NCBI GenBank assembly: GCA_016191325.1
Contig: JACPOV010000008.1
Coordinates: 910,351-974,350 of the forward strand
Length of the DNA: 64,000 bases
DNA from: Candidatus Babelota bacterium
GTDB lineage: Bacteria; Babelota; Babeliae; Babelales; JACPOV01
Reading direction: 5' to 3'
The number at the start of each line of letters is the position of its first letter. Position 1 is the first letter of the stretch. A program made the translations under genes and the position numbers. This document shows, piece by piece, positions 3,911 to 54,668 of the stretch. Under the pieces are notes generated by a model. It was given only the letters and a program-made list of their open reading frames with translations. It was not told the DNA's origin and made no database searches.

Positions 3911-4107
3911 TCACCCGTCTCCTCTATGCATGCATTTTTTTGGTTACGCACCAGTTTACGCAAAATTTTAAAAAGTACTACTGTGGCTGCTTTTAACCTT
4001 TCTTATTTTCGAGCCCCAGGTCCCTTATAAAATTGAAAAGTTTTGCCTGTTAACTTATACTTTGAACAAAAATGACGCGTTATGCTCATTAAACAACAAG
4101 GATTTAT

Positions 4108-17675: not shown

Positions 17676-19772
17676 TTAAAATATTATTCCCATTTTGTTT
17701 ATCAAACGCTGTTGCAAAGGATGCGGCAAGGTGCCAAACAGGCTTTTAAGATCACTTGGCAATTCCACCGTCTTCTTAATTTTACCTAAATGAAGAATAA
17801 CTCTTACAAGTAATGCTTGTTCCAAAGTCAAACGAGCTACATAAGGGGTGACATCATCCCATATAATTACTGACTTACTGTTCATAAGAAAAAACGCGAG
17901 TACATTTTCACTCAAGGCAAACTGCATAATGTTATCATCAAAACCTGTTACGATCGGATAAGGTGAAGATAATGCAAGTTCCGGTATCCAAAGGGCTATT
18001 CCGTTAGAAGCAGAACTGTCTTTAAAAGAATACGCAAGCATAGTACCAGCACCATTAAAAACAAAGGAATTAGCAACCAAGGATCCCTTAATCTCCTGGT
18101 CATATACAGTTACCGTCTTCTGAAGTTTATGATCAGCAGCGTTTAGTATTCCTATGTGGACGTTATCCAATCCGACCGCAATTTCTTCCTTTCGAGGATT
18201 AAATACTGATTGGTACACTTTTTTCGGATAAGTACTCACCGTATCTTTATCCAAATCCCATAGAGTGAGAGTCAAATTGCTTATTCTTATCGCTAATTGT
18301 GTACCATGACTATTAAAAGAAAGAGAAACAATACATTGTGTAAGAGCTGTAAACTCGTTCAGCTTTTTTCCACTCATTGTGTCTACTGCTATAATATCAT
18401 TATGGATGCTCTCATAGGCCAATCGACGACCATCAGCACTCATCGTCACGAGGCGATTATACAATTTTCCTGCTGGATCAACTATTGTTTGAATGATTTT
18501 GCCTGTATTCCAATCAAGGATAACAATCTCAGATCCATTCCATTCATCAGCAGCTAGAACCGATCCACCAGAGATCAAAGATTTAAGTGATGTAAAATGA
18601 GGAATTTCAATTACTCTTACTTGTTTCCCTGTTTGCACATCAAAGATAGCAATACTATTACTCGCCATAGCAACAGCAATTTGCGTCGCATCACTATTAA
18701 AAGCTATCGCTCGTATATCAGTACGAATGCTCCCTAATGCTATTTTACCTTTGGTTTTCCAATCCTCTGGAGCAAAGGTAAGCGTTAGTTTTTGAGCCCA
18801 GCCAAAGAGTGCTGATTTATCTGCAAGCATGTTTGCAATGATTTTTTCCTGCAATGTTAACTGCAAATCTGGCACAATTTCATCAACTATCTCAAACAAT
18901 AAAGTTGGATTCTTAGCAACTTGTGTTAAAAAAGCAGGAGTAGCCACTTTATGCGCTAGCGCGCTTTCAACAAGATCAAGTACGGTTGGCATCGCCAAGT
19001 AATTTGCTACTGATAAGAGCTCGATAAGCTGTTTTCGCTCATAAGAAGAGAGATCTTCTGCTAACTTTTCTTTAAGGAGATTAGTTTTTTTGGCAAGGAT
19101 AAAAAGAAGGTTCCAGCCTATGCCGGTTACGTTGGGCAACGACATTTGTGTATCAGCAGGAAGCTCCTTAGGATCTTTATACCCCAAGAATTCTGATAAA
19201 TTTTTTAGTGTCTCCGAATTTTCAATGATGTTTATCGTTATAGCTCGCGCTTCACCTTCAGCAGGTATTGTGAGCGTATAATTAACAAGTGCTTTTTTTT
19301 CAAAGCTACTTGAAGGGATAGAGCAAACGTCGTGCTGCGATGATTTTTTTTGTGCAGACTTAATAGCAGGGGCAACGCCAGTAAGCGCAAATTGCTGATA
19401 TATCTTTTGCAGTACTGGTATATCTAAAAATCGTATTACTTTTCCTAGTTGTGTAAATGCGGTAGTGCCATGAAATTTTCTAAAATTGTTGAAGGTGATA
19501 ACCAGCTCGTCAGGCCTCGAAAGTTTAAGCAATACGCTCAGAATAAAATTAAATGATGTTTCATCCACATCAGGTAGACCAAATTCATTTGCAAACCTCT
19601 CATCAGCGATGATATCTTTAATAGTAGGCGATATTGCTGCTAACTCTTGCAATTGTTCTGATGAAATCCTAGCAGATTTATCATTTTTAAGATGCACCGT
19701 AATAGATGAAGGCAAACTTGCCTGCAACAAAGTGACAAAAAATAATAAATAAATTACTATCAACTTTTTCAT
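17676..19772 (-). CDS. Skp1/BTB-POZ-like (x2) + WD40-like beta-propeller protein, family member E1
   Basis: The preferred ATG at 19772 lies 4 nt after AAGGAG (the track uses GTG 19790). Leader MKKLIVIYLLFFVTLLQA. ITVHLKNDKSARISSEQLQELAAISPTIKDIIADE...GLPDVDETSFNFILSVL and LIELLSVANYLAMPTVLDLVESALAHKV resemble Skp1 ([13 protein letters not shown]...[10 protein letters not shown]...PLPNV; [28 protein letters not shown]). Propeller-type blades include IAVAMASNSIAIFDVQTGKQV and LTLTLWDLDKD. Confidence 0.7.
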   Translation of the reverse strand: MKKLIVIYLLFFVTLLQASLPSSITVHLKNDKSARISSEQLQELAAISPTIKDIIADERFANEFGLPDVDETSFNFILSVLLKLSRPDELVITFNNFRKFHGTTAFTQLGKVIRFLDIPVLQKIYQQFALTGVAPAIKSAQKKSSQHDVCSIPSSSFEKKALVNYTLTIPAEGEARAITINIIENSETLKNLSEFLGYKDPKELPADTQMSLPNVTGIGWNLLFILAKKTNLLKEKLAEDLSSYERKQLIELLSVANYLAMPTVLDLVESALAHKVATPAFLTQVAKNPTLLFEIVDEIVPDLQLTLQEKIIANMLADKSALFGWAQKLTLTFAPEDWKTKGKIALGSIRTDIRAIAFNSDATQIAVAMASNSIAIFDVQTGKQVRVIEIPHFTSLKSLISGGSVLAADEWNGSEIVILDWNTGKIIQTIVDPAGKLYNRLVTMSADGRRLAYESIHNDIIAVDTMSGKKLNEFTALTQCIVSLSFNSHGTQLAIRISNLTLTLWDLDKDTVSTYPKKVYQSVFNPRKEEIAVGLDNVHIGILNAADHKLQKTVTVYDQEIKGSLVANSFVFNGAGTMLAYSFKDSSASNGIALWIPELALSSPYPIVTGFDDNIMQFALSENVLAFFLMNSKSVIIWDDVTPYVARLTLEQALLVRVILHLGKIKKTVELPSDLKSLFGTLPHPLQQRLINKMGIIF

Positions 19773-19843
19773 AAGGCTCCTTTTGCTCACATTTTTTAAT
19801 CACTGTAGCAAAAAGGCTCAGAGACCCGCATTAATTTTGTAAT

Positions 19844-20529: not shown

Positions 20530-22632
20530 CTAGAATTTAATTTTTAGTTTTTCAGTCGATTCTTTTTTCAATTCTTCAGGCAGCGCTTGGAAATATGGCA
20601 TCATGTCTTGAGGCAGTTTAAATTCAGGTTGTTTGTTGATTCTGTGCAACTGATAGATCATTAAAAGAGTAAATAGTTGCGTTAGCGCTAATTTATTAAC
20701 GATAGGACGTAATGCATTCCTGGATAAGTTAACTCTATTTTTTATAGCTGCAAGAAATAACCTATCACTTGAATTAACCGCAGCAGCTGTCAATTCCTGG
20801 TTCACTTTAATACTTGTGAGCACTTCACCTGTTTTCAACCCAACAATTTTAATCGCATTATTTTTATTTTGCATAATAATTTGTTCGTTTATTGAATTAA
20901 ATCGCAGGATCCTATCTGTAGCCGAAAATGATCTAAGCTGATTACCCGATTTAATATCTAAAGTCACAAATAAATTTCGAGTTTTTGTTATTAAATTGCC
21001 ATCTTTATCAAACCATATTCGTTCAATTCCATTCGCGACTGAGATGACTCTTTGTTTTGGCGAAGATGAAATATCCCAAAGCTGGATCTCTAAAGTGGTC
21101 GGATCGGCAATAGCCAATGTTTTTTTTGCGTCATCAAATGCCATAGTACAAATTAAAGAAAATGTTCCGTCAAGCGGAATAATACGAATATTTTTCTGGT
21201 TTGCTAGATTAATAATCTGAACTCGTGTATCTGAAGTACGAATTGCTGCCATAGTGCCATCATTACTCAAAATCCCAGGGACTAAACCCAAATCAAAAAT
21301 CGAGGCAGCCATTCCTAATTGTTCCAAGGGGATTGCTGTCATATCTTTTTTTGCACTCAGATCACAAAAACGGAGGGCTTGCTCTCCCAAAAACATACAC
21401 ACGGTGCCTTTTTGACTTATTCTCAATCCTTTTCCAGCCAACTCGTAAGTAAGACGGTAAACTTCTTTTGTTATCCAAAGAATTTGAAGAGGAGAATCTG
21501 GACTCTTTAAAAAAATTATTGGCGTGTTGGTATCTTCATTAACTATTAGATCTGAAATTATCTGATTCGTCGCAATATAATTTGAGAGGTGTAATTCTTC
21601 AGTTTTCCATCCATACGAATTGAGAAAATCCGTTTGTGAAATAGTATTACGAACAATTGAAGCCTCCGCGGTGCTGGGCAATGACGAAACCCATTTTAAG
21701 AAGGTTGCGACATCAGCTGCTTCAGTCGCTAAGAGTTTTTTAATGAGAGCATTTGCCATTTTTTTTTCGACAACATTGCTCAATATTCTCATATCCAAAT
21801 AATCGGCAAGCTGCAGAAATTTGAGCAATTGCTCAGAGTTGAAGCTAATGTTGTTGAATAAATGCGTCACATTTTCTTCATTATTTAAATCGCGCACGGC
21901 TATTGCAAGCTTTTTGAGAATCTCCCACTCTTCTTGGCTGATATTACCAATCACAATTTTTTTTCCTGGAGCAAGTTTTTCAGGAGATACTTCATAAATA
22001 TCTTGAATTAACGTTTTTAAAACGGTCGATGCATTAAAAATCCTAATGATCGTTTGAGCTTCTGTTTGCTCTTTTGGAAATATAACTGCGAACAGCTCGC
22101 GTTCCTCCGTTTTTAGTCTTTTAGTTTCCTCTGTTGATTCAATTTTGCGTTTCCCCTGCTGCAAAGGAGTTACAAGCTGTTCTTGTTGAGCAAGCTCTTC
22201 TCGGTTCTTAAGAATTTTTGAGTACATATTTTGAAATGAAGGAGGCAATTGAATATCAAGATAATTCAGCATATCTAGAACTGACTCAAATCCTCCCAGC
22301 TTTTTTGTTTGTTCTAAGCGAAGTTTTTCGTCAAATTGTTGCAAATCGTTCAAAACCGCTTCGGGCAATGATTTTAGAAAGACAAAAGACTTTTCATCAA
22401 TATCTGGCAGGGCAATTTCTTGTAATTGGCCTTGTTGTAAAATATCCTCTATCAATTCCTTAAGTGTTTGAGATTTAGTCGCAAGAAATAGGAGCTTATT
22501 TTTAGGAATCGTTATCTCCACATCGCCTTTAAGTTTGACCAAAACCTGATCAGGCGGGCAGCTGCCCATCATGAATAAAGCGGATGCAATGATAATTGCA
22601 CGTTGAGCTACTTGTTTTATTATATCTTCCAT
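20530..22632 (-). CDS. Skp1/BTB-POZ-like (x2) + WD40-like propeller protein, family member E2
   Basis: VLVKLKGDVEITIPKNKLLFLATKSQTLKELIEDIL...IALPDIDEKSFVFLKSL, then LLKFLQLADYLDMRILSNVVEKKMANAL. Blades include TLEIQLWDISSSPKQ. The C-terminal tail is shared with E1, E3 and E4. Confidence 0.7.
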   Translation of the reverse strand: MEDIIKQVAQRAIIIASALFMMGSCPPDQVLVKLKGDVEITIPKNKLLFLATKSQTLKELIEDILQQGQLQEIALPDIDEKSFVFLKSLPEAVLNDLQQFDEKLRLEQTKKLGGFESVLDMLNYLDIQLPPSFQNMYSKILKNREELAQQEQLVTPLQQGKRKIESTEETKRLKTEERELFAVIFPKEQTEAQTIIRIFNASTVLKTLIQDIYEVSPEKLAPGKKIVIGNISQEEWEILKKLAIAVRDLNNEENVTHLFNNISFNSEQLLKFLQLADYLDMRILSNVVEKKMANALIKKLLATEAADVATFLKWVSSLPSTAEASIVRNTISQTDFLNSYGWKTEELHLSNYIATNQIISDLIVNEDTNTPIIFLKSPDSPLQILWITKEVYRLTYELAGKGLRISQKGTVCMFLGEQALRFCDLSAKKDMTAIPLEQLGMAASIFDLGLVPGILSNDGTMAAIRTSDTRVQIINLANQKNIRIIPLDGTFSLICTMAFDDAKKTLAIADPTTLEIQLWDISSSPKQRVISVANGIERIWFDKDGNLITKTRNLFVTLDIKSGNQLRSFSATDRILRFNSINEQIIMQNKNNAIKIVGLKTGEVLTSIKVNQELTAAAVNSSDRLFLAAIKNRVNLSRNALRPIVNKLALTQLFTLLMIYQLHRINKQPEFKLPQDMMPYFQALPEELKKESTEKLKIKF

Positions 22633-22665: not shown

Positions 22666-24786
22666 CTATTTATTTAATTTTAGATCCGACATAAATTTAG
22701 GATAATACTGCTCAACAAGAATCTTAATATCCATTGGTAAGCTAGTTATCTTTTTTTCAAAATCTTGGCTTAAAATCACTTTTTCTTTTTGCGGACCAGA
22801 AAGCGCATGGTATTTCTTTATTAACGCAAGTGTAAAAACTTTATCGATTGAAAGCTTATCGAGTTGGTAATCAATGTTTTTCCATACAAGTACGCCTTGC
22901 CGTGTCGCGATTGCTATGCGAGACCCATCACCATTAAACGAGATTAAATCATGTCGAGCCATTTCGCCTCTCACCAGAGACCAAACTTCCTGAGGGAGAA
23001 TAATAGTTTGATAGTGTTGAGGATTCGAAACTTGCCAAATTCGTATCTCTTTCCAGTAGTCTGCTGCAATTTTTGCACCATTGGGACTGAAAATAGGATT
23101 CGTTATCCAACCAGGCGCTTCATTGTATTCGAAAGACATGTCCTCAATTATTTTTTCTTTTTCGATATCCCACAGTCTCATCTTTCCTTCGTATGACTTA
23201 GCAAGAAGCTGCTTTTCACTTAGGAACGCAAGGCTTTCAATCGGCTTCATATCTTCAGTCAGCAGTCGCTTGATTATTTCTTTTGTGTTGAGATTTATAA
23301 AGAAAATTCGTCCATCCGCCAGGCCCAATGCAATCGTTTGATCGTTTGGCGAAAAAGCCATGCTATAAATACTCGAATGTGATAAGTCCCATGTATCAAA
23401 AACAGAATCATAGTTATTTGTAGCGAGATCATAGAGGGTGAAAAGTCTACCATTGGCAATATATCCAAGAAATTTATTATTATGGCTAAAGGCACTTGCA
23501 GAATTTGAGGCTTGCTTGACCGTTATTTGGTTTCCGTTTTTTATGTCCATCAAATAAAGGCCTTGAGAAAAGCCTATCCGAGCTTTAGTAGAAATATAAT
23601 TCCCGTTTGGACTAAATTGCATCGCATCTGGTGAAAATTCAAGACTTGCAAGGAAACTTATTTTTTTCGTAGTAGTATCTATGAGTATTATTCCTTTTTT
23701 CTCTTTGTGGGTATCGTTAATACCCGCGGCAACAATTAAACCATCAGGCCTCATCGCTATCCCGCTCAATTCTCGATCGGTGCCAATTTTCAATGGCCCA
23801 CTCCAATGGAATTTTCCCAACAGCTCGCTTTTTAGAATTCTTCGCTTTAGTATTTCGCGAACTTCTGGCGTTATTTGATTAAAAAATTTATCGTAGGCGC
23901 CTAAATGCGCAAGCGCATCAAAAACTATTTCTTCGCTTTCCAATCGTGCTAAAAGTAGATCAATAGCGTTATCCAACAATCGAGCCATTTCTAAATAGTC
24001 TGCAATCAAGAGAATATCTTTTAATCTATCTGCGCTGTATTGCTTGAGAGCATTATGCACTTGATTATCATTAGAAAAATCTTCAATATTATCAGCCAAC
24101 TCTAGGAGTAAATTCCAGTGATCGATCGAAATACTGGTAATAAGAAGGTCTGCTCCCGGCGCAATCTCATCTATGTTCTCAAGCTTACGCGCATCTCTAA
24201 CATAATCTGTAAGAACGCGTGAAGCTTTTACTATCTTTAATACCCGTTCTCTGCTTTTACCTCCTGTCGGAATCGAGATCGTTAATTGCTTACCTTCTAT
24301 TCTTAATTTCTTTGGCTCGGTTATCTCAGATTCTGGCTCTTTTCTTTTGATAGTGATCGGGCAAGCTTGCTTGAGCTGCGGCAAACTATCATACGCGTTA
24401 AGTAACTCTTTAATATCAAAAAATTCAACAACTCTCATCAAATTCGAAAATGAATTGGCGCCGCGTGTCTGCAGATAATTTTTTAATTTGATTATTAATT
24501 GGCCAGGCGATTGAATAATCTTAAGAGCCTCGACGATAAATTTGAGCGAGTCTTTGTCGACCTGTAAAAATGGCAGCTCTTTAACAGCGTTTGCACTGGC
24601 TTCGACTTCTCCAGCAGCATTGTTGATAGTCGGAGAATATTCTCTCAGTTGAATGAATGTCGACTGCGGCACAATAACCGTTTGATCATCTTTTAGATTA
24701 AATTGAACATCGCCAAAACGTGCAGTATAGGCACCCTGACTTATCATTACTGGTAAAAATAAAAGCACCACAGCTATTTTTTTCAT
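22666..24786 (-). CDS. Skp1/BTB-POZ-like (x2) + seven-blade WD40-like propeller protein, family member E3
   Basis: The preferred ATG at 24786 follows GGAGGG (the track extends to 24846). Leader MKKIAVVLLFLPVMISQGA. LKDILLIADYLEMARLLDNAIDLLLARL. Blades include IALGLADGRIFFINLNTKE, GKMRLWDIEKEK and EIRIWQVSNPQ. Confidence 0.7.
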   Translation of the reverse strand: MKKIAVVLLFLPVMISQGAYTARFGDVQFNLKDDQTVIVPQSTFIQLREYSPTINNAAGEVEASANAVKELPFLQVDKDSLKFIVEALKIIQSPGQLIIKLKNYLQTRGANSFSNLMRVVEFFDIKELLNAYDSLPQLKQACPITIKRKEPESEITEPKKLRIEGKQLTISIPTGGKSRERVLKIVKASRVLTDYVRDARKLENIDEIAPGADLLITSISIDHWNLLLELADNIEDFSNDNQVHNALKQYSADRLKDILLIADYLEMARLLDNAIDLLLARLESEEIVFDALAHLGAYDKFFNQITPEVREILKRRILKSELLGKFHWSGPLKIGTDRELSGIAMRPDGLIVAAGINDTHKEKKGIILIDTTTKKISFLASLEFSPDAMQFSPNGNYISTKARIGFSQGLYLMDIKNGNQITVKQASNSASAFSHNNKFLGYIANGRLFTLYDLATNNYDSVFDTWDLSHSSIYSMAFSPNDQTIALGLADGRIFFINLNTKEIIKRLLTEDMKPIESLAFLSEKQLLAKSYEGKMRLWDIEKEKIIEDMSFEYNEAPGWITNPIFSPNGAKIAADYWKEIRIWQVSNPQHYQTIILPQEVWSLVRGEMARHDLISFNGDGSRIAIATRQGVLVWKNIDYQLDKLSIDKVFTLALIKKYHALSGPQKEKVILSQDFEKKITSLPMDIKILVEQYYPKFMSDLKLNK

Positions 24787-24924
24787 AGACCCTCCATTTA
24801 AGATTGAAATTAGTCTAAAAGATTTAGCTCTTGCGGAGCAACACATTGTAGCCGATCAAAATAAAAGTTTTATCGGGGTATCTTTACAACTCAAATGCAT
24901 TCAACTAGCCTGATACCTATATAA

Positions 24925-31009: not shown

Positions 31010-32383
31010 ATGGGGAATCTAAAAAAAATAATTGGGTGTTTATTTTTTTGTGTGATTGCACTTCCCAGTTATTCCCAAATGCATAAAGAAAAAAAGCCCG
31101 AGATGCGAAGAACCAATAGCTGTCGCGATTTAAAACAACTTCTGGAAGAAGATCCCTTTAAAACCAAAACCTTTGAACAATCTCCACAGCCTTTGGTTAA
31201 CAACAATAACAACAATTCAAAAGATGAAGTTACTGAAGTAAACCTCGCTTCAATGCCTGAAATAATGGAGAATTCTTTTGCGAGAATGATGAAAAAATAC
31301 GATCCATTCCGCAGAACATCAAGTGTGCCAAAAATCGCAATTGAACCAATCGAATCGTATACCTCCAAAAGGCAACCACTCACACGCAGTTTTTCTGAAC
31401 TTTCTTCTAAGGCGTACGCGATTACATATCCTGGTCCTGGGGTTTTTGCAGTTCACGATATGGAAGAGGATAAAGAGCTTCTCACTTTGAACGGTTCACC
31501 GTGGAAAACGCATACCACCTTTGCCAGCCCAACAAGCATTGCTTATATTACAAAGCCGGAAAGCGCTGTGTGCGTTGTAGAAGTGCCCACAGGAAAACAT
31601 GTAAAATGCACAGATTTTAAAGTAATTGATTTCAACAGTTCTACTTTTGAAATCCCACAAGGGGTGTCTAGCCCAGATCTTATTTCTCAAGGGAAAAAAC
31701 CTTATCCAGTTACGGTGAAAGGGCTCGATAATAATAAACTCTTAACCCTTTACCGATCAACTTCCACAACTATAAACAAACAAAAAGGTGGCATTCTTTA
31801 TTTGTGGGAGGTCGACCGAGGAACGTTCACTGAGCTCGACCCAAAAGCTGTTAATATTGATTCTGCGCTTCTTGCTGCCGGTAAATTAATCGATACAAAA
31901 GGGAATGAGATACAAATCTTTGAAAATCCTGGAAAGCAGACAGAATCGATAAAGACAATAGCAAAACATACCAAACCGATAGCGAGCATTTCATTATCAT
32001 CATTATCACAAAATGAACTTATACTCGCTTCAGGCTCTGCCGATAAAACCGTTAGGCTGTGGGATTTGGGAATGTATGGGAGCGAAAGCGCAACTTTTGA
32101 ATTTCCAGAAAAAATAAACGCTGTCGCTTTTCACCCAGAAATCGACTATCTTTTGGCCGTTGCAGCATTAGGAACTATTCATTTTGTCGACACCCGAACA
32201 AAAGAAAGTATTGGTACGTCGCCCCTGGGCGCAATGTGTAAAAATAATATAGTACGAACGCTTAAATGGAATCAAACGTCTCTCTACGTAGAAACCGGAT
32301 TACGCGTGTGGTCGAAATTAACCGGTCTTGATAAATTCTTACAGAGCGGTAAAAAAGTCGACACAACTGCACAATCTCAATAG
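31010..32383 (+). CDS. Leader-bearing WD40-repeat protein with Asn-rich low-complexity linker
   Basis: Leader MGNLKKIIGCLFFCVIALPSYSQ. Canonical WD40 repeat ELILASGSADKTVRLWDL, then INAVAFHPEIDYLLAVAALGTIHFVDTRTKE. GGGAG lies upstream of the ATG. Confidence 0.75.
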   Translation: MGNLKKIIGCLFFCVIALPSYSQMHKEKKPEMRRTNSCRDLKQLLEEDPFKTKTFEQSPQPLVNNNNNNSKDEVTEVNLASMPEIMENSFARMMKKYDPFRRTSSVPKIAIEPIESYTSKRQPLTRSFSELSSKAYAITYPGPGVFAVHDMEEDKELLTLNGSPWKTHTTFASPTSIAYITKPESAVCVVEVPTGKHVKCTDFKVIDFNSSTFEIPQGVSSPDLISQGKKPYPVTVKGLDNNKLLTLYRSTSTTINKQKGGILYLWEVDRGTFTELDPKAVNIDSALLAAGKLIDTKGNEIQIFENPGKQTESIKTIAKHTKPIASISLSSLSQNELILASGSADKTVRLWDLGMYGSESATFEFPEKINAVAFHPEIDYLLAVAALGTIHFVDTRTKESIGTSPLGAMCKNNIVRTLKWNQTSLYVETGLRVWSKLTGLDKFLQSGKKVDTTAQSQ

Positions 32384-35926: not shown

Positions 35927-36355
35927 ATGAAGTTAAAAAATATAGCATTCTTTGCCTTATCACTTCTCGTTGTCGTTCCAGTTGCACAAGCAAGTCTTGG
36001 TACAACTCGTGTAGATGGCACTATAGGTAGAACAACTACTTATTATGGTAACCGCGTGTATACAAACCCTACCGGTTATCCAACCACGGCAAACACTGGC
36101 GTAACTGCCACCGCATATCCAACTACTAAGGTTGGAACAACTGCGATTGGTTATACAAATCCAGGAACTGCAAGTTTGGCTAATCCGAATTATACAAATC
36201 CTAATGTTTACGGTACTGAAACGAATTATGCTACAGGAACACCTGAAGAGAATAACTACTATAACCGTACATACAGACAAGGGCGATCTGGTTTAGGTCA
36301 ATATAGACACGGCGGCGTGTTGAGCAACCCATCAGGGCGTGGCTTTTACCGATAA
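35927..36355 (+). CDS. Secreted Thr/Tyr/Asn/Gly-rich low-complexity protein
   Basis: Leader MKLKNIAFFALSLLVVVPVAQA, then repeated motifs such as TGYPTTANTGVTATAYPTTKVGTTAIGYTNPGTA...NPNYTNPNVYGTETNY. AGGAGA lies upstream and the gene has its own terminator. Confidence 0.65.
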   Translation: MKLKNIAFFALSLLVVVPVAQASLGTTRVDGTIGRTTTYYGNRVYTNPTGYPTTANTGVTATAYPTTKVGTTAIGYTNPGTASLANPNYTNPNVYGTETNYATGTPEENNYYNRTYRQGRSGLGQYRHGGVLSNPSGRGFYR

Positions 36356-36450: not shown

Positions 36451-36792
36451 ATGAAGCTAAAAAAAATTATGCTCGTCGTACTATCCATTGCGATAATTGC
36501 GCCTCTTGCACACGGTAGAGGCGGGGGCGGCCACGGCGGCGGCGGACATTTCGGCGGCGGTGGCGGTCACTGGGGCGGATATGGCGGTCGTGGTTATGGT
36601 AGAGGTTACGACAGAGGATTCTACGGCGGTACCGGAATAGGTTTTTATGGCGGCCCTGGCTACTATAGCGACTACGATGATTATGGCACTTATTACGACG
36701 ACGGCGGTTACGTTGGCGATGACGGCGTTGCTGTAGGCGTTGATGGCGTCGGCGTTGGTGTTGGCTCTGGCGGCATCGGTATCGGATTCTAA
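36451..36792 (+). CDS. Secreted Gly/Tyr/Asp-rich low-complexity protein
   Basis: Leader MKLKKIMLVVLSIAIIAPLAHG, then RGGGGHGGGGHFGGGGGHWGGYGGRGYGRGYDRGFYGG...YYSDYDDYGTYYDDGGY...GVGVGVGSGGIGIGF. AGGAGA lies upstream. Locally GC-rich. Confidence 0.65.
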   Translation: MKLKKIMLVVLSIAIIAPLAHGRGGGGHGGGGHFGGGGGHWGGYGGRGYGRGYDRGFYGGTGIGFYGGPGYYSDYDDYGTYYDDGGYVGDDGVAVGVDGVGVGVGSGGIGIGF

Positions 36793-39291: not shown

Positions 39292-39744
39292 ATGAAAATT
39301 TTAGCGCAAAATAAAAAAGCTTTTTTTGATTATGAAATTCTCGATCACATCGAAGCAGGAATTGTGCTCACCGGGGATGAAGTAAAATCGATGCGGGCCG
39401 GGCACATTTCGCTTGTTGGTGCCTATGCGACGATTTACCGAGGAGAGCTTTTTTTAATCAATTGCACCGTGGCACCGTATGCGCAGGCGTATCAAAAAAA
39501 AGATGAAACAAAAACTCGTTCACGAAAACTTCTCGTTCATCGGCGCGAACTTAATCGAATCGCCGGCGATATCTCTCGCAAAGGAGTTACGATCTTAGCA
39601 CTCAAAATTTACCTGAATGAAAAAAATCTCATTAAAGTAGATTTGGGAATTGGTAAACACAAAAAAGCTGGCGATAAACGAGAAGCAATTAAAGAAAAAG
39701 ATCTCAAGCGCGAATCGCAACGCGAGTTAAAAAATAAATATTAA
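39292..39744 (+). CDS. smpB: SsrA-binding protein SmpB
   Basis: NKKAFFDYEILDHIEAGIVLTGDEVKSMR...KLLVHRRELNRI...GKHKKAGDKRE is typical SmpB. Confidence 0.93.
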   Translation: MKILAQNKKAFFDYEILDHIEAGIVLTGDEVKSMRAGHISLVGAYATIYRGELFLINCTVAPYAQAYQKKDETKTRSRKLLVHRRELNRIAGDISRKGVTILALKIYLNEKNLIKVDLGIGKHKKAGDKREAIKEKDLKRESQRELKNKY

Positions 39745-39774: not shown

Positions 39775-40794
39775 ATGATGGTTCTCTACTCTTTGTTACT
39801 TCTTTTTGGTTCCTATGCCCATTGCATGGAACAAAACAAATCGTTCACAATTCAAGAAACCCGCCAAGTTATTCTGAAGGATCCCGTATCGTTCATACAA
39901 GAAATAAGAAATCATCAGAAAAAAATGATGGGCGAAATAAAAACAAAAAATCTTGATACCGTAAACAACTGGCCCGCAAGCATCGAAATTATAAAAAAAT
40001 ATCAAGCAATCATGCCCCTTGTTCAACTTGGCGAATGCCCAGGAATCTCAGGAAGAGATTGTCCGCTTGATCGAATGCTCTTTCCCGAGTTACGAGATGC
40101 ATACGAGAAAGAGGTTTCAAAAGAATTGGCGGCGCAATTGCAAACACAGAAAGAAGTGCACCTTGCAAGTTTTGGTTCGGGTGATCTTTCACAAGACCTC
40201 ATTGTGTACACAAAAGCACTTGCTAAAGTGACCGATAACCCAAAACTCACCATTCATAACATTGATCTAGTTTATAAGTTTAACACGCCTTATTCGGATC
40301 TGATTGGAAAAAAGCGTCTAATTGAACACGAAGACTTTACAGAAAATTTTGCGATCGAGTTCATTTCAAAATCGTTACAAACTAAGTCTAAGCAGCCTCT
40401 ATCAAAAGAAACAGCACGAAATATTATTCTATCCGGCTTGCATTACACGTCATTAAAGAATAACAGCATGCTTGATTTTCTTAAAAATGCATTTCCCAAA
40501 GCAGCGATCTCGTTATATGTCCACCAATCGGCAGATAGTTATTTGCAATATATGAAGCGTGAAAAGCTAAGCCCGCCCACTATTGTTACTGCTTGCGATA
40601 TCGATAACGTGGAAGACTTCAAGTCCGGCAGCACCATTGCTTATGCTGATATCTCTAAAAAAGCATTTGAAAATCCTAACGCGGCCACTTTTTTATTGGC
40701 CCGCGAAGATCCATCGTCGACACAGGCGCAATTGCTCGTTATGAAAAAAAAGAATGACCAAACTCCTATTGCGCTCATATCTCTTTTTTCATAA
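39775..40794 (+). CDS. Leader-bearing protein, tandem paralog P1 (possible Rossmann/methyltransferase-like core)
   Basis: MMVLYSLLLLFGSYAHC|MEQNKS. Conserved with P3: EC-x7-CPL-x-R, VHLASFGSGDLSQDLIVYTKAL...LTIHNIDL, FLKNAFPKAAISLYVH, TACDID. Function not established. Confidence 0.7.
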   Translation: MMVLYSLLLLFGSYAHCMEQNKSFTIQETRQVILKDPVSFIQEIRNHQKKMMGEIKTKNLDTVNNWPASIEIIKKYQAIMPLVQLGECPGISGRDCPLDRMLFPELRDAYEKEVSKELAAQLQTQKEVHLASFGSGDLSQDLIVYTKALAKVTDNPKLTIHNIDLVYKFNTPYSDLIGKKRLIEHEDFTENFAIEFISKSLQTKSKQPLSKETARNIILSGLHYTSLKNNSMLDFLKNAFPKAAISLYVHQSADSYLQYMKREKLSPPTIVTACDIDNVEDFKSGSTIAYADISKKAFENPNAATFLLAREDPSSTQAQLLVMKKKNDQTPIALISLFS

Positions 40795-40834: not shown

Positions 40835-41878
40835 ATGAATTATTTATCGGCTATAATTTTATTTTTTTCAATTTTTAATGTTCCTCTTTCCTGCATGGAA
40901 AAAAAAACGCAATCAACAACAACAAAAAAATCTGCAGATTTTGAGAACTTAAAAAAAACAATTCTCTTAAAGCCAGTAGATCTATTGCAAGCTAATATGT
41001 TGTCTCAGGCTGCATTTGAAATTCAAGAACAAAAACTAGATGATGATGTTCCCAGAGAGGGGCTTGTAGCGCAAATAGAAAAAACAGTTCCATTTTTTTT
41101 TATTAATGAATGTGGTAGACACAGCAGTGAAGATTGTCTTTTAAGTCGTTTTAAAAATCCTAAACTCAGACAAAAATATGCTGAAATCGTTAGTGCTGCT
41201 CTTATTGAAAAGATTAACCGCACAGAAGAAACGGTTAAATATACTACAGTAAGCACACCGCTTTTTTCAGACTTGGAGATTTTAACGCGAACTCTTGATA
41301 AAAAAAGCAATGCCAAAATAGCGATTGATGTTGTTGATATCTTTCACGGCATTTTCGATTTATTTTGCACTGTTCAAAGCAAAGATCATTCTCTCGATAA
41401 TCTAATGGAAAAAACAATAGGACAAGAAGAGCTTGGCAAGATGCAAGAACTTGTTTCTACTCCTTGTTCAAGTGAAGTTAAAAAAGAACGGTTGGTTGAA
41501 AGCTTTTCTGTTGGAAAAACACGCAATAATCAATTACTCAATGGTTTGAGAAAGATGTTTCCAAAGGCCGATTTGACATTGTCCGTTTATAATTGTGTTG
41601 ATCATTATTTAAACCATGCAGCTGATGATGACTTCCTTGTTCCCGATATTGTCTGCGGGGACGATATTGAACACGAATTTGACCTGTCGGATAAAAATTT
41701 TGCATCGAAAGCCTTCCATGAACTCTCGATTGCTGCCCTTGTTGCCAATCCAACTGCTAAATCAATCCTCTTGAGCAAAAAATGCGAGGGCATTATTCAA
41801 ACGATAACTCGCAAGCCTACTACAACCTTCTATTATGAAGTTCAATACATAAAACCGTCAGTTGTAAAATTGAAATAA
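40835..41878 (+). CDS. Leader-bearing protein, tandem paralog P2 (divergent; Gly motif lost)
   Basis: MNYLSAIILFFSIFNVPLSC|MEKKTQ. Retains EC-x7-C-LL-SR, KMFPKADLTLSVY and CGDDIE, but has YTTVSTPLFSDLEIL in place of ASFGxG. Confidence 0.65.
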   Translation: MNYLSAIILFFSIFNVPLSCMEKKTQSTTTKKSADFENLKKTILLKPVDLLQANMLSQAAFEIQEQKLDDDVPREGLVAQIEKTVPFFFINECGRHSSEDCLLSRFKNPKLRQKYAEIVSAALIEKINRTEETVKYTTVSTPLFSDLEILTRTLDKKSNAKIAIDVVDIFHGIFDLFCTVQSKDHSLDNLMEKTIGQEELGKMQELVSTPCSSEVKKERLVESFSVGKTRNNQLLNGLRKMFPKADLTLSVYNCVDHYLNHAADDDFLVPDIVCGDDIEHEFDLSDKNFASKAFHELSIAALVANPTAKSILLSKKCEGIIQTITRKPTTTFYYEVQYIKPSVVKLK

Positions 41879-41994: not shown

Positions 41995-43029
41995 ATGTTT
42001 AATCTTCTTTGCCTGTTCTTCATTGTTCCCTTTTACGTTATTGGAATGGATGAGCTGCCTTCAATTGAAACAACAAAAAACCAGATAATGAGTAACGAAT
42101 ATTTAAAAAATCATGAAATTATACGAAAAAAAGTTTTTCAAGAAATAGATGATCTTGGATTGACCAAAGAAGAAAAGTATACAGAGCGCATAGCCCTTCT
42201 GGAAAAGTACAAAAAAAAACATCCGCTCATAGCGCTATCGGAATGTGCATCCTCTCAAATGGGGGTTTGTCCATTGAGCAGAGCCATACATCCCAACTAT
42301 CGAGATACATATGAAAATACAGTTTCTCAAGAACTTGCACGACAATTAAAAAACCAAAAAACAATATCCATTGCAAGCTTTGGGTGCGGGCAACTTCTTT
42401 CTGATGCCATTATCTATACCAAAGCCCTTGAAACAACTAAGTCAGCAGAGCTCATCATTCATCAGATTGATCACCAATTAATTATTCCTCAATTATATTT
42501 GAATAAAACAGAAGAGAATCGACGCGTCAAAAGACAAACATTTTCATCAGAAGAAACCTTAAGTTCTATTCAAAAAACCTTAGAATCAACTAAAAACGAA
42601 TTTAGCGAAAACTCTGAAGAAAAAGCTTTGGCATCAGACAGCCTGGCTCTAAAAAATACAATACTGGACGAATTACATACTCAATCATTTCTGCATAATA
42701 GTCTATTAGATTACCTGCAAGAAGCATTCCCTCAAACTACTATTTCCATGTACGTTCACGGAACCGCACAAGATTATTTGCAAGATATAGAAAATAAAAA
42801 ATTCCCAAAACCGAATATGGCAATAGCGGCAGATATCGACGATGGATATGGAATGGAAAGAAATAGCGTGGCAGACTATTATTTAGTCAGATCAAAAGCT
42901 TTAGAAAATGATAATTCAGCAGCATATATTCTTGCACGATCTACAGAAAATCCAGATACCCAAGCGCAAATCAGATGTATAAAGATGGAAAATGGACAAC
43001 GAATTGAAGCATCTATGAAGAAATTATAG
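41995..43029 (+). CDS. Leader-bearing protein, tandem paralog P3
   Basis: MFNLLCLFFIVPFYVIG|MDELPS. ECASSQMGVCPLSR, ISIASFGCGQLLSDAIIYTKAL...LIIHQIDH, YLQEAFPQTTISMYVH, AADIDD. Confidence 0.7.
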   Translation: MFNLLCLFFIVPFYVIGMDELPSIETTKNQIMSNEYLKNHEIIRKKVFQEIDDLGLTKEEKYTERIALLEKYKKKHPLIALSECASSQMGVCPLSRAIHPNYRDTYENTVSQELARQLKNQKTISIASFGCGQLLSDAIIYTKALETTKSAELIIHQIDHQLIIPQLYLNKTEENRRVKRQTFSSEETLSSIQKTLESTKNEFSENSEEKALASDSLALKNTILDELHTQSFLHNSLLDYLQEAFPQTTISMYVHGTAQDYLQDIENKKFPKPNMAIAADIDDGYGMERNSVADYYLVRSKALENDNSAAYILARSTENPDTQAQIRCIKMENGQRIEASMKKL

Positions 43030-43110: not shown

Positions 43111-43491
43111 GGGGGCGTACTGGCTTCGACGTTCTATAAACATCGTAGAAAGCATGCCGAGTTTGACTGAGACTCGTACAAAATTGGTCAAAAACAGAAA
43201 TGCAAACGCATCTCAACCGAATCCTAACGCTTACAACGCAGGTTTTGCCCTCGCTTAATCGTTAAGAGACACTTGTCAGTAAGGCGTGTCTATCAGTTGA
43301 ACTGACACGTATTAATCAGATAGAACTGATGCGGTAGATTTTTCAGTTGCGTAGCGTATCAGTATCACGAAACTGGCTCATGCGCATTCCTGTGTTTTCG
43401 AGGGGCGTATGAGTATATTCGAAAAATAAGCATGTAGCGTTTTACGTTTTTTATTTTGCGGACATGGGTTCGATTCCCATCGCCTCCACCA
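43111..43491 (+). ncRNA. ssrA: tmRNA (SsrA), one-piece
   Basis: The 5' GGGGGCGTACTGGCTTCGACG pairs with the 3' ...GGACATGGGTTCGATTCCCATCGCCTCCACCA (T-arm plus acceptor, G3:U70 alanine identity pair, CCA encoded). The tag ORF 43202-43258 (GCA AAC GCA ... GCC CTC GCT TAA) encodes ANASQPNPNAYNAGFALA. Confidence 0.9.
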
Positions 43492-43790
43492 GTCTTCGCT
43501 TATCCGGGCCTTCCGGCTCGACAAGCTACGCCTGGCTTCGCCATCTTTTCTAAGGACGGATACACAGTTAAATAGCGAAGACTGCCCGGCATAGCCTTTA
43601 GGCGACGCCTGGGCTGATCCAATCAAAAGAATCCTTATTTTCGCTTATCCGAGGCATTCCGGCTCGGTAAACTACGTATGGCAGGCCAGTTTTTTTTAAC
43701 GGATCAAAATAAATATCGCGAGCCAATTGAGGCGAAGTATGCCCTTCGTAGCTCGCCAACGAGCGAAGTAGGGCGAGTCTATTAAATCCA
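43492..43790. repeat. Repeat-rich region immediately 3' of ssrA
   Basis: Direct repeat TTCGCTTATCCGGGCCTTCCGGCTCGACAAGCTACGCCTGGC (from 43495) versus TTCGCTTATCCGAGGCATTCCGGCTCGGTAAACTACGTATGGC (from 43640). Inverted partial match ATAGCGAAGAC at 43572-43582. Hairpin-like GCCCTTCGTAGCTCGCCAACGAGCGAAGTAGGGCGAG (43741-43777) shares CCCTTCG and AGGGCGAG with the repeat family at 16.5, 26.7 and 28.5 kb. Confidence 0.6.
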
Positions 43791-44301: not shown

Positions 44302-44436
44302 GAAGCGCCTGCTATATAATTTGGCCAGACCCTTTTTTCAATCATCTCATTTTGTGCTAGCTTAATTAATAAGGGTTCGTTTTCATGCATTATTTGGAGT
44401 TTTTCTCTAAAAAAAGCAAAAACCGGAGGTATTACT

Positions 44437-45729
44437 ATGAACCGACTATTTTTAAAAATAGCATGGCCTATTGCTTCGATTGCCCACTTAGCAAGCGCAG
44501 CTCCTTCATTTGAATCACTAGCGCTTCTGGAGCGTCAAATTTCGGTATTGCCGGAAAAGACCTTCCGCTTCATGCCAACCTTTCTTAGCTTAGATCAGTT
44601 GCGAGCGACAATAGCCACTTATCGGGCACAACGAGTAATCGAACAACGCAACGCTCCATGGATAGACGCGCGTTCTTCAAATGGTCTTTTTGCGCAAAAG
44701 TTAATCGTACCGCAAGACAGCAAAATTCTTTTTTTTGGTGATATTCATGGATCAGTCCATTCGATCGTACGAATGTTTAATTCTTGCATAAAACAAGGAA
44801 TCGTGAACGATCAACTCGCGATTACACAACCAAATACTTACTTTGTTTTTCTGGGAGACTATGTCGATCGCGGTTTTTACAGCATAGAAACGCTCAATAC
44901 TCTTTTACAATTTGCAATACGAAATCCTGGCAAAGTGATTTTACTGCGCGGCAACCATGAAGATGAAATGATGAACCGTTCATTCGGGTTTGGCCAAGAA
45001 CTTACTACAAAGTTTCCGGAAATTGCCGCAGCCGACAATTCACTAATCTATAAATTATTTGATTTGATGCCCTCTGTGCTCTATTTAGGCGCAGGAATAA
45101 ATAATAATTTTGATATTATTCAATGTTGCCACGGGGGTATTGAAATTGGATTCAATCCTCAAAAATTACTAGAGCATTCATCACACAAAACTTTTCAAGC
45201 AATTGATCGAATCGAGAGAGCAAGCGCCATTCGCGCATTGCCGCAAGCGTTAAAAAAACCAATTCTCGATACGATTCCCGCGCAAGAAATATGCGGCTGT
45301 TCGCTCTCAGCTCCAACTTCGCCTACGCATCTTGGATTTTTATGGAACGATTTTATTGAAAAAGATACGCTGTATACATCATCTGCAATTGGCTATAAAG
45401 AAGATCGCGGTTGGGTGCTTGGTAAAATTCTAACCAAACATTTTCTAAGTATGCACAGCGCCGCAAATGCTCACATTCGCACAATTTTTCGCGCGCATCA
45501 GCACCATGGATCAATGCTTGAAATGATGAAAGAAAATCAGGGAATTGTTCCACTCTGGAACGGATTGGTTTATACCTTTGTTTCATCCCCTGTTAACGGA
45601 ATGAATATTCACTTCGACTCGTATGGGATTTTAAGCGTTGGTAAATCGTTTGACGAGTGGAAAATGAAGCACTGCATTATTACAAAAAATGGCATCGATT
45701 ACAAAGAGATGCCAAAACTCATCAACTAA
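44437..45729 (+). CDS. Secreted PPP-family (eukaryote-type) Ser/Thr protein phosphatase
   Basis: Leader MNRLFLKIAWPIASIAHLASA. PPP motifs in order: FFGDIHGS (GDxHG), LGDYVDRG (GDxVDRG), LRGNHED (GNHE), CCHGG (HGG), FRAHQH (RAHQ). Confidence 0.85.
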   Translation: MNRLFLKIAWPIASIAHLASAAPSFESLALLERQISVLPEKTFRFMPTFLSLDQLRATIATYRAQRVIEQRNAPWIDARSSNGLFAQKLIVPQDSKILFFGDIHGSVHSIVRMFNSCIKQGIVNDQLAITQPNTYFVFLGDYVDRGFYSIETLNTLLQFAIRNPGKVILLRGNHEDEMMNRSFGFGQELTTKFPEIAAADNSLIYKLFDLMPSVLYLGAGINNNFDIIQCCHGGIEIGFNPQKLLEHSSHKTFQAIDRIERASAIRALPQALKKPILDTIPAQEICGCSLSAPTSPTHLGFLWNDFIEKDTLYTSSAIGYKEDRGWVLGKILTKHFLSMHSAANAHIRTIFRAHQHHGSMLEMMKENQGIVPLWNGLVYTFVSSPVNGMNIHFDSYGILSVGKSFDEWKMKHCIITKNGIDYKEMPKLIN

Positions 45730-53030: not shown

Positions 53031-54635
53031 CTAGTTTAATTTGAAATAATCTATAAGTTCAGTTTTTTGCTCTGAATTTAAACTATCGAATATTTTTTTT
53101 TGCATTTCTCCTTTTTTCAAATCAATCGGAGTATTTTTATTTTGCAAATGAAATAAAGCCGTTATTAATGCTAACTGGCTGGGGGAATTACACTGATTAA
53201 TAGCGGAGATTAACGGTATTGAATAAAGTGTTTTTTCAGAACATATATAATTAATTCCTGTAGAAGTAACTGCTCCATTATTGTTAGTTATATATGGCAT
53301 TTTAACCATTTTTTTTCTCATCAAATCATAAGCTACGGTTCTAATATCTCCATCTTTTTTAGCTATTGACCCTATGGCAAAATTTCCTCTTAACATAGCC
53401 CAATGTATATTTTGATCAGTTTTAGCTTGACTCCAATTACCATATTTATGGAGGTCATAATCTTTATCCAAATAATAGAGATCTGTGCCGACATCAGTAA
53501 ATCCAATCACATCTTCATAAACCGATCCGCTAGCGCCTTGAGGTGTATCAACTTGAAGCCAACCATCCATTCCTTGGACTATTACTCTTTCGTCTTTACA
53601 AAATTTAACACTTTTGGGAACTTTTGAACCAAATGGGCTTATTTTTCTAAAGGAATTTTTTTTAACAAGATCATACCATACAATTTCTTTTCCATTTATA
53701 TAAACCAGTTGCTTTTCCGATTTATCAAAAGAAATAAGGCCATCACTATTATTGTCCGATCTAATATCGTCAATAATTGCTTTATTTGAATCTAGTTGCA
53801 GTACATAGCCTTTTTGCGAAGAATTCTTAATTCCTAAAATAGCTAGATATTTACCAAACGGACTCAAGAAAATAGTTTTTAGCTGAGATATTTTATCAGA
53901 ATCTACAGCTAGTTCCTGCTGAAGCTTTCCCGAGAGAGTATCGTGGATATTAATTTTTTTATTTGATTCGCCAATAGCTAAAGAATTGCCATTTTCGGTA
54001 AAGCTAATCGTTTGGATTTCTCCTTTTGTACCCAAATGGTGTACTTTTCCTGTGGCTAGATCCTCTACCTTCAGATTAGTCCAAACAGATGTGTTCGCTA
54101 TAAATTGTTCCGTGGGGCTTAACCAAATAACATCAGACGCCGAATATCTTTTTTTTGCGATACGATCAATTACAATTCTTTTGGCTTCTTTTAATGTTTT
54201 ACGATCATTAAAAATTTCAGAATCAAATTTTGTGAAAAATTGTTTATCGAAACCGCTTAACTCTTCTTTCGATTCTTTTAAATTATTCTCTAAATCCTCG
54301 ATCAAATTATCAAATACTATATTTCCGTACATGCTCTTGTTGATAAAAGGAAGCTTGACCGGTTCTTTCTTGGCCCCCATCTCTCTCAAACGATTCAATT
54401 CCAAACTGGATAATTTCTCTTTAGTGGAGGTAGAATTGTCCCCAAAAACTGCCTCTCTAAAAAAACTACTCTTCTCAACAATATTCTCAATTACAGCTCC
54501 ATCTTTTTCTAAATGAGTACCGTCACTTAACTCCAGTAAATAGCTCGGTGGATTATTCGCACTAACTGAGTACTTATCCATAGAATAGGAAAAACTCGTA
54601 TGAACCATTAAAAAAAGCATTATAAAATAAATCAT
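53031..54635 (-). CDS. BTB-like + beta-propeller protein, family member E4 (leader ...S-M-D)
   Basis: The ATG at 54635 lies 7 nt after AGGGA and gives MIYFIMLFLMVHTSFSYS|MDKYS. YLLELSDGTHLEKDGAVIENIVEKSSFFREAVFG resembles the start of a BTB domain. Blades include NSLAIGESNKKINIHDTLSGK. The tail LALITALFHLQNKNTPIDLKKGEMQKKIFDSLNSEQKTELI matches the E1-E3 tails. Confidence 0.65.
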   Translation of the reverse strand: MIYFIMLFLMVHTSFSYSMDKYSVSANNPPSYLLELSDGTHLEKDGAVIENIVEKSSFFREAVFGDNSTSTKEKLSSLELNRLREMGAKKEPVKLPFINKSMYGNIVFDNLIEDLENNLKESKEELSGFDKQFFTKFDSEIFNDRKTLKEAKRIVIDRIAKKRYSASDVIWLSPTEQFIANTSVWTNLKVEDLATGKVHHLGTKGEIQTISFTENGNSLAIGESNKKINIHDTLSGKLQQELAVDSDKISQLKTIFLSPFGKYLAILGIKNSSQKGYVLQLDSNKAIIDDIRSDNNSDGLISFDKSEKQLVYINGKEIVWYDLVKKNSFRKISPFGSKVPKSVKFCKDERVIVQGMDGWLQVDTPQGASGSVYEDVIGFTDVGTDLYYLDKDYDLHKYGNWSQAKTDQNIHWAMLRGNFAIGSIAKKDGDIRTVAYDLMRKKMVKMPYITNNNGAVTSTGINYICSEKTLYSIPLISAINQCNSPSQLALITALFHLQNKNTPIDLKKGEMQKKIFDSLNSEQKTELIDYFKLN

Positions 54636-54668
54636 ATCAGAATCCCTAAACACCAAAATTTTAAATTA

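Follow-up and report, generated by a model that had tools for sequence, protein, structure and literature searches.

Could an obligate parasite of protists export an active phosphatase, and if so, whose proteins would it act on? The question is raised by a 64,000-nucleotide (nt) stretch of Candidatus Babelota bacterium (assembly GCA_016191325.1, contig JACPOV010000008.1, forward-strand positions 910,351 to 974,350; "the window" hereafter means this whole stretch), in which one gene encodes a putative phosphatase of the phosphoprotein phosphatase (PPP) family with an apparent export signal. Dependentiae (TM6, Babelota) are a widespread phylum of obligate parasites of protists. To our knowledge, almost nothing is known about how they manipulate their hosts, and we know of no type III or type IV secretion system in them; most effector candidates considered to date are repeat proteins. 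A conserved PP1-like phosphatase with an intact catalytic site and a predicted export signal would be a concrete, assayable candidate for interfering with host Ser/Thr phosphorylation. With moderate confidence, we favor the view that the protein is a Sec-exported, active PP1-like phosphatase working on phosphoproteins outside the bacterial cytoplasm and, given the lifestyle of the phylum, most plausibly on proteins of the host.

The gene is complete and has a recognizable ribosome-binding site:

44437..45729, + strand: coding sequence of 430 amino acids (aa) plus stop, a complete open reading frame (ORF)
44425..44429, + strand: Shine–Dalgarno sequence GGAGG, 7 nt upstream of the ATG (direct sequence reading)

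The product is identical to NCBI MBI2775367.1, recorded as a "metallophosphoesterase" of Candidatus Dependentiae bacterium, on a contig of 1.24 Mb. We consider the ATG start sound because of the GGAGG at this spacing and because the N-terminus is kept in an 83%-identical ortholog. No paralog was found within the window, where a tblastn search recovered only the gene itself.

An earlier note, made from the sequence alone, had listed five PPP motifs in order (GDIHG, GDYVDRG, GNHE, HGG, and RAHQ). All five were confirmed at their positions, and three more landmarks came to light: LWNDF (aa 302–306), DRGW (aa 323–326), and SSPVN (aa 383–387), a degenerate form of the SAPNY block. The mature part of the protein is laid out as follows:

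44500..44688, + strand: N-terminal helical subdomain, aa 22–84 (helices at 28–36 and 52–72 in the structural model)
44689..45711, + strand: PPP catalytic domain, approximately aa 85–425 (Pfam PF00149, PDB sequence matches, Foldseek match to PP1)
44737..44751, + strand: motif 1, GDIHG, aa 101–105 (metal ligands Asp102 and His104, matching PP1 Asp64 and His66)
44854..44874, + strand: motif 2, GDYVDRG, aa 140–146 (Asp141 is the bridging metal ligand)
44950..44961, + strand: motif 3, GNHE, aa 172–175 (metal ligand Asn173 and general acid His174, matching PP1 Asn124 and His125)
45130..45138, + strand: motif 4, HGG, aa 232–234, invariant in the family (metal ligand His232, matching PP1 His173)
45148..45330, + strand: family-specific expansion between HGG and LWND, aa 238–298 (model, alignment, and count against PP1)
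45340..45354, + strand: LWNDF, aa 302–306, aligned to PP1 LWSDP (Asp305 is equivalent to PP1 Asp208)
45403..45414, + strand: DRGW, aa 323–326, aligned to the PP1 RG pair (Arg324, matching PP1 Arg221, supplies the second arginine for clamping phosphate)
45490..45501, + strand: motif 5, RAHQ, aa 352–355 (metal ligand His354, matching PP1 His248)
45583..45597, + strand: degenerate motif 6, SSPVN, aa 383–387, in place of SAPNY (alignment)

Across 34 family members, G101, H104, and G105 of motif 1 were invariant and D102 was at least 90% conserved. The GNHE motif, W303, D305, R352, H354, and Q355 were likewise invariant, and conservation was at least 90% for R324 and for F306, the residue by which "DF" replaces the usual "DP". 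Arg145 in motif 2 is the first arginine of the phosphate clamp and corresponds to PP1 Arg96. The helical subdomain resembles the N-terminal helices of eukaryotic PPP catalytic subunits, and in the family-profile alignment it pairs with the start of the phosphatase domain of BSU1. By direct count, 67 residues lie between HGG and LWND versus 29 in human PP1, and the ∼38 extra residues belong to an expansion that the model folds as a small beta-hairpin and two helices and that holds a conserved LPxxLK...P..E segment. Motif 6 has no tyrosine at the position of PP1 Tyr272 and no Cys273, and the beta12–beta13 loop is two residues longer; the family consensus, VYTFLSxPxxxxxF, retains S-x-P with no conserved Tyr at or beside the Tyr272 position.

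The match to the PPP fold goes far beyond chance. The Pfam Metallophos profile (PF00149) was hit at E = 1.4e-16 (61.9 bits against a cut-off of 21.5). All 60 PDB matches listed for the single sequence were eukaryotic PP1, PP2A, PP2B, PP5, or BSU1 (E ∼1e-15), and a profile of 34 family sequences brought the values to between 1e-32 and 1e-25, with BSU1, PP1, rdgC, PP2B, and PP2A as the best. The AlphaFold2 model (mean predicted local distance difference test score [pLDDT] 92.3; predicted template modeling score 0.91) has the PP1-like alpha/beta sandwich, and its best 50 Foldseek matches were all PPP catalytic subunits, PP1 coming first (E = 7e-17; template modeling score 0.74–0.77 when normalized to PP1). 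The fold and an intact active site are both in place, and the protein is best explained as a PPP-family phosphoprotein phosphatase that uses two metals and is predicted to be catalytically competent.

Which kind of PPP is it? Kerk et al. (2021; Sci Rep 11:13681, PMC8249667) described an "EukaryoticPPP-Like" wing marked by Asp208 in place of the bacterial second arginine, an RG-pair loop (Arg221), and a remodeled motif 6 with a conserved Tyr272, the equivalent of which is conserved in all archaeal and eukaryotic PPPs. The window protein has in common with this class all six motif positions, the motif-2 arginine, the Asp208 equivalent (Asp305, invariant, with Phe and not Pro as its partner residue), and the RG pair (Arg324–Gly325). 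It differs in its "DF", in the ∼38-residue insertion after HGG, and in the missing motif-6 tyrosine, in whose region it reads SSPVNG. The family shows that this supposedly universal tyrosine can go while every catalytic residue stays.

We inferred a neighbor-joining tree (a distance method; 200 bootstraps) from 66 taxa trimmed to 280 catalytic-domain columns. The taxa were 22 family proteins, 36 bacterial and archaeal proteins from loci in GTDB species genomes, ApaH, PrpA, and PrpB of Escherichia coli with lambda phosphatase (sequences from annotated records), and four human sequences (PP1, PP2A, PP2B, and PP5), which were the only eukaryotes in the tree and were matched end to end by PDB chains at 738–876 bits. 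A pruned version had 58 taxa after removal of eight very divergent sequences. The best-supported split separated ApaH, PrpA, PrpB, and lambda phosphatase from everything else (198/200 with 66 taxa; 199/200 with 58). Corrected distances from the window protein were 1.65–1.8 to eukaryotic PPPs, 1.45–2.0 to archaeal PPPs, and 2.7–3.0, which is near saturation, to the E. coli and phage enzymes. NCBIfam equivalog cut-offs were not reached for ApaH (18.1 bits vs. 176), PrpE (18.1 vs. 340), or Pnkp (23.5 vs. 750). The split, the distances, and the low scores all speak against a place among ordinary ApaH/PrpA-type enzymes, which was part of what the earlier note had named as refuting its reading. Those enzymes (PrpA/PrpB, lambda phosphatase, and ApaH; ∼220–280 aa) have motifs 1–3 and the metallophosphoesterase fold in common with the window protein, and carry GHT-type C-terminal motifs where it has RAHQ and a SAPNY-type block.

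The core family (31 taxa, including the window protein) was monophyletic in 196/200 replicates of the 58-taxon tree. Support was weak for the widest definition of the family (98/200 for 39 taxa) because of the eight very divergent sequences. The four human enzymes grouped without the window protein in 197/200 replicates with 66 taxa (194–197/200 over both trees), and a family-plus-eukaryote grouping appeared in 0/200 (66 taxa) and 1/200 (58 taxa). These comparisons place the window protein in the eukaryote/archaea-like class of PPPs, not with the PrpA/PrpB/lambda/ApaH type, and within that class in a separate bacterial clade of its own, about equally far from archaeal and eukaryotic PPPs. The label "eukaryote-type", given to the protein by the earlier note, thus holds for the class, as judged from the tree split and the Asp208 and Arg221 equivalents, and does not extend to nesting among eukaryotic PP1, PP2A, PP2B, or PP5. 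The archaeal enzymes (PP1-arch type; Asgard and TACK) fall in the eukaryote-like wing too, at distances similar to those of the eukaryotic enzymes; they are ∼260–330 aa long and have neither leader peptide nor insertion, whereas the window protein has the insertion and a predicted leader.

The closest structural match, the eukaryotic PP1 catalytic subunit (for example human PP1 alpha; PDB 1FJM and 3E7A), has the same metal ligands, arginine clamp, and general acid. The window protein differs from it in having a putative signal peptide and an expanded HGG–LWND region and in standing outside the eukaryotic clade. It also reads SSPVNG where the toxin-binding beta12–beta13 loop of PP1 reads SAPNYC, and because this loop is altered, sensitivity to microcystin or okadaic acid cannot be assumed. 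The eukaryotic identity of the best sequence and structure matches in the PDB (PP1/PP2A), together with the RAHQ, LWxD, and RG motifs, would also fit a recent capture of a host gene for a PP1/PP2A-type catalytic subunit that was later given a signal peptide. We judge such a capture highly improbable in view of the bootstrap counts above and of a BLASTP identity to human PP1 of just 31% over 157 residues (motifs 1–4), with the C-terminal half undetectable. The gene has a GC content of 0.40, not atypical against 0.39 for its surroundings and the window, and its synteny is kept down to 53% protein identity. The family comprises at least 466 clusters at 50% identity, and both the tyrosine and the cysteine of SAPNYC are absent.

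Whether the enzyme leaves the cytoplasm depends on its N-terminus:

44437..44499, + strand: predicted Sec signal peptide, aa 1–21 (MNRLFLKIAWPIASIAHLASA), with n-h-c layout and a putative signal peptidase I site between ASA and AP

The N-terminus reads as the earlier note had given it, MNRLFLKIAWPIASIAHLASA followed by AP, and a signal peptide is credible. A heuristic analysis gave an n-region of M-N-R (plus Lys7), a hydrophobic h-region of IAWPIASIAHL, and a c-region of A-S-A followed by A-P. Comparable hydrophobic N-termini were seen in 101 of the 120 closest relatives and in 181 of the 213 full-length relatives with a complete N-terminus (∼85%), so that a signal-peptide-like N-terminus is conserved across the family. 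The expectation in the same note that bacterial homologs are usually cytoplasmic was not borne out, as nearly the whole family bears predicted export signals. A 71%-identical ortholog (P0003) has a textbook signal peptide, MKIFSQLALLILFLSQIAIA followed by DPSF, that ends at the same aligned position. Identity between the two proteins is 29% in residues 1–21 versus 71%–73% in the mature part, suggesting that the leader is constrained only in its physical chemistry. In the model, residues 2–19 form a detached low-confidence helix that runs into a disordered linker (pLDDT 58–70 over residues 1–20, and <50 at residues 18–21). Archaeal relatives have no hydrophobic leader and start directly with the helical subdomain.

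The h-region of the window protein is the weakest among its relatives (best 10-residue hydropathy 1.66) and is interrupted by Lys7, Pro11, and His16. This weakness would suit a cytoplasmic or inner-membrane-anchored signaling phosphatase whose hydrophobic N-terminus is not a cleaved signal peptide. We find that very unlikely: the segment has neither the length nor the hydrophobicity of a stable anchor (best 19-residue hydropathy 1.44), the signal peptide of the 71% ortholog ends at the equivalent residue, a leader is found in 85% of full-length relatives, and the archaeal relatives without one are presumably cytoplasmic. A type I membrane topology was rejected as well; of the 213 relatives scanned, just one had a second helix between leader and catalytic domain above the threshold, and the window protein has no such second transmembrane segment after its leader. 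Judged by its leader and those of its relatives, the phosphatase is probably exported.

How would an exported enzyme work? The precursor would enter the Sec translocon by means of its 21-residue signal peptide, and signal peptidase I would cut after Ala-Ser-Ala21, leaving a mature enzyme of ∼46 kDa (residues 22–430) outside the cytoplasm. Two metals would be held by Asp102, His104, Asp141, Asn173, His232, and His354; phosphate would be clamped by Arg145 and Arg324, with the leaving group protonated by His174, as in PP1. The likeliest substrates would be phospho-Ser/Thr (possibly phospho-Tyr) proteins outside the bacterial cytoplasm, most plausibly those of the host, which the enzyme could reach through the type II secretion machinery of the phylum or in outer-membrane vesicles. 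Leader cleavage, passage of the outer membrane, the identity of the substrates, and action on the host are the steps that we infer here. In Chromulinavorax destructans, a cultured member of the Dependentiae that sits in the host cytoplasm, 44% of coding sequences have signal peptides, including 78% of ankyrin proteins, and Sec has been proposed as the effector export route (PMC6561590). Components of type II secretion are found in TM6 genomes, which have gspD in two copies (PMC4776705). The window itself also encodes WD40 proteins with signal-peptide-like N-termini (listed below). A role for the window phosphatase as a modulator of host signaling, as the earlier note had suggested, is plausible.

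Known effectors offer a parallel. WipA and WipB of Legionella pneumophila are PPP-fold phosphatase effectors that act on host phosphoproteins (PMC5454105, PMC5572681); like the protein in the model proposed here, they are PPP-fold phosphatases of an intracellular protist parasite that are delivered outside the bacterium. They are secreted by the Dot/Icm (type IVB) system and have no Sec signal peptide, whereas the window protein has a predicted one, and the motifs of WipB are degenerate (GDLHA, GDELVDR, NHG), whereas those of the window protein are canonical. WipA prefers phosphotyrosine (PMC5454105, PMC5572681). Neither was found among the 60 PDB sequence matches listed or the best 50 Foldseek matches, and we therefore regard them as analogues and not as close relatives. 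No type IV system is described for Dependentiae in two genome papers (PMC4776705, PMC6561590).

Several observations weigh against a host-directed, exported enzyme. In addition to the weak h-region and the missing motif-6 tyrosine, ∼30 of the 53 ORFs in the window have signal-peptide-like N-termini by the same crude measure, so a signal peptide discriminates poorly in this genome. The fold does not fix the substrate class, since phosphotyrosine (WipA) or nucleotides (ApaH) can be the preferred substrates of PPP-fold enzymes. Family members with signal peptides also occur in high-GC (52%–60%) metagenome-assembled genomes (MAGs) of Verrucomicrobiota and Pirellulaceae. Lastly, the phosphatase gene is a syntenic core gene that sits beside housekeeping genes and outside any dedicated secretion locus. 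The order smpB, PPP, 2-hydroxyacid dehydrogenase, P-type cation ATPase, OmpH/Skp, and peptidyl-tRNA hydrolase (Pth) is common to three genomes, namely that of the window, GCA_036260945 (83%-identical ortholog), and ADurb.Bin331 (53%-identical ortholog). The gene is thus a vertically inherited core gene of its lineage. Small leader-bearing ORFs without known relatives (ORFans) around it vary between genomes, which makes "effector-like cluster", the description used in the earlier note, fair for the neighbors; the phosphatase itself, syntenic at 83% and 53% identity, lies outside any mobile island.

The same evidence bears on the main alternative, in which the exported phosphatase has a bacterial role unrelated to the host, acting in the periplasm or at the cell surface on envelope or secreted bacterial phosphoproteins, or on small phosphoesters. 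Because the Verrucomicrobiota and Pirellulaceae carriers are not known as intracellular, such an envelope or extracellular role is possible, and we hold it to be a real if rather unlikely option. It would agree with the setting of the window gene, which belongs to the syntenic core and has genes for a P-type cation ATPase and OmpH/Skp as neighbors, and with the export or lipoprotein-like N-termini of other bacterial eukaryote-like PPPs (L028, L058, and L065). It would also agree with a Pirellulaceae locus (L004; CAYNJG010000013.1, 52% GC) in which a CotH-type kinase gene (7118–7918, − strand; PF08757, E = 2e-23) lies convergent with, and immediately downstream of, the phosphatase homolog. CotH-type kinases are a family of secreted or spore-coat kinases, and the two genes of L004 may encode an extracytoplasmic kinase/phosphatase pair. 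This kinase is the sole exception to the mostly housekeeping gene context of the high-GC relatives, however, and no CotH gene was seen near the phosphatase in the window. Protein phosphatases typically have such an arginine clamp and a PP1-like architecture, by far the greatest diversity of the family lies in a phylum that depends obligately on hosts, and we know of no periplasmic Ser/Thr phosphorylation system in Dependentiae. If the envelope proved to be its site of action, the enzyme would hint that bacteria phosphorylate proteins outside their cytoplasm, which would be interesting too.

A cluster scan of 1.84 billion representatives at 50% identity yielded 466 proteins at E ≤ 1e-30, 3160 at 1e-10, and 11,321 at 1e-3, and the named members were almost all Dependentiae, Babeliales, or TM6. 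Full-length relatives in GTDB species genomes came from Babeliales/TM6 and from MAGs labeled Verrucomicrobiota, Pirellulaceae, Pseudomonadota, Saccharimonadales, and Alteromonadaceae. Among the loci without a Babeliales label, three cannot be Dependentiae because their GC content is 52%–60%, and the high-GC proteins (Verrucomicrobiota/Pirellulaceae) formed a subclade nested in the family (174/200 in the 58-taxon tree). Beyond the full-length relatives, the GTDB species genomes held archaeal PPPs that matched over the N-terminal half only.

In their survey of UniProt, Kerk et al. (2021; PMC8249667) counted 59 bacterial "EukaryoticPPP-Like" sequences, mainly from Deltaproteobacteria and Firmicutes. 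Two Dependentiae/TM6 proteins are among the 59 in their Supplementary Table S3, so the class assignment of the window protein is not new. One of the two is from ADurb.Bin331, the MAG that also carries the 53%-identical syntenic ortholog; the sameness of their accession A0A1V5R1C0 and OQA36045.1 is not confirmed, and the supplement holds no sequences. Neither the family itself nor its predicted export is discussed there, and we found no description of the family in Dependentiae in the literature searched, including the genome papers (PMC4776705, PMC6561590). At no fewer than 466 clusters at 50% identity, nearly all with predicted signal peptides, the family makes the bacterial branch of the class much larger.

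More tentatively, and with less confidence than we have in an individual exported enzyme, we suggest that Dependentiae, with offshoots in other phyla, hold a large undescribed radiation of Sec-exported eukaryote-like PPPs that could serve as a general weapon against host phospho-signaling in the absence of type III or type IV secretion. If this were true, Dependentiae would be the main bacterial reservoir of the eukaryote-like class, rather than Deltaproteobacteria or Firmicutes, and would offer a tractable set of minimal, regulator-independent PP1-like enzymes.

We noted some variety within and beyond the family. One locus (L005) has two tandem family copies (436–1494 and 3271–4359), and two members (P0034 and P0054) share one 68-kb contig; some genomes carry two copies near each other, so that lineage-specific expansions exist. 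In some long members (P0054, P0097, P0100, P0114, and L006), a "GW(L/V)PxW(I/L)S" motif comes after the leader and another hydrophobic segment precedes the catalytic domain, which would imply a different topology. More distant eukaryote-like PPPs are found in other bacteria, including a Parachlamydiaceae MAG (L048). Export-type N-termini are seen in three such distant bacterial PPPs, with a lipobox-like "LAC" in L065 and hydrophobic leaders in L028 and L058, and exported PPPs may be commoner among bacteria than assumed.

Upstream of the phosphatase lie smpB, the transfer-messenger RNA (tmRNA) gene ssrA, and a set of ORFans:

39292..39744: smpB
39775..40794, 40835..41878, and 41995..43029: tandem array of three paralogous ORFans (∼340 aa, all leader-bearing) between smpB and the tmRNA gene
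43111..43491: tmRNA gene ssrA (Rfam, 140 bits), with tag peptide ANASQPNPNAYNAGFALA, ∼950 nt upstream of the phosphatase

A 3.4-kb interval that contains the three ORFans separates smpB from the tmRNA gene downstream of it. Two of the ORFans are 37% identical to each other (E = 5e-57), and all three have an "ASFG(C/S)G.L..D.I.YTKAL" segment in common. None had a Pfam match, and the third (344 aa; locus tag HYX58_05145) matched only itself among 5.8 billion proteins. The four ORFs flanking the phosphatase also had no Pfam match, and the two small ones next to it are unrelated to each other. We considered and rejected a genomic island at the tmRNA gene, given that there is no downstream repeat of the tmRNA 3′ end, that the GC content is typical, and that synteny holds in two other genomes. 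A 47-nt imperfect direct repeat (43507–43553 and 43653–43699; 70% identity) stands just after the tmRNA gene in a noncoding gap of ∼390 nt.

The window also encodes a group of repeat proteins:

17676..19790, 20530..22632, 22666..24846, 31010..32383, and 53031..54656: five WD40 beta-propeller proteins (N-terminus clearly signal-peptide-like in four)

A WD40 gene lies directly upstream of the phosphatase ortholog in ADurb.Bin331 as well. WD40 appears to be the expanded eukaryote-like repeat family of this lineage, as ankyrin is in Chromulinavorax.

At least 12 of the ∼30 leader-bearing ORFs have [S/C/G/A]-Met-[Asp/Glu/Asn] right after the hydrophobic stretch, compared with ∼4% estimated by chance:

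9339, 10196, 32785, 34647, 39775, 40835, 41995, 43879, 45761, 46806, 51173, and 53031: starts of ORFs with the post-leader Met motif

Examples are HCMEQNK, SCMEKKT, IGMDELP, NCMDQQK, LSMDHES, and SCMDNSF. The motif is also present in some phosphatase-family homologs of other Dependentiae (P0103, P0111, P0067, and L068), and the window phosphatase does not have it. Possible explanations are a cleavage or sorting signal specific to the phylum and an alternative internal start site that would result in dual localization. Finally, two small leader-bearing ORFs are of extreme composition, one rich in Thr, Tyr, Gly, and Asn and the other in Gly, Tyr, and Asp with GGGGHGGGGHFGGGG runs (35927–36355 and 36451–36792), and may encode low-complexity proteins of the envelope or secreted ones.

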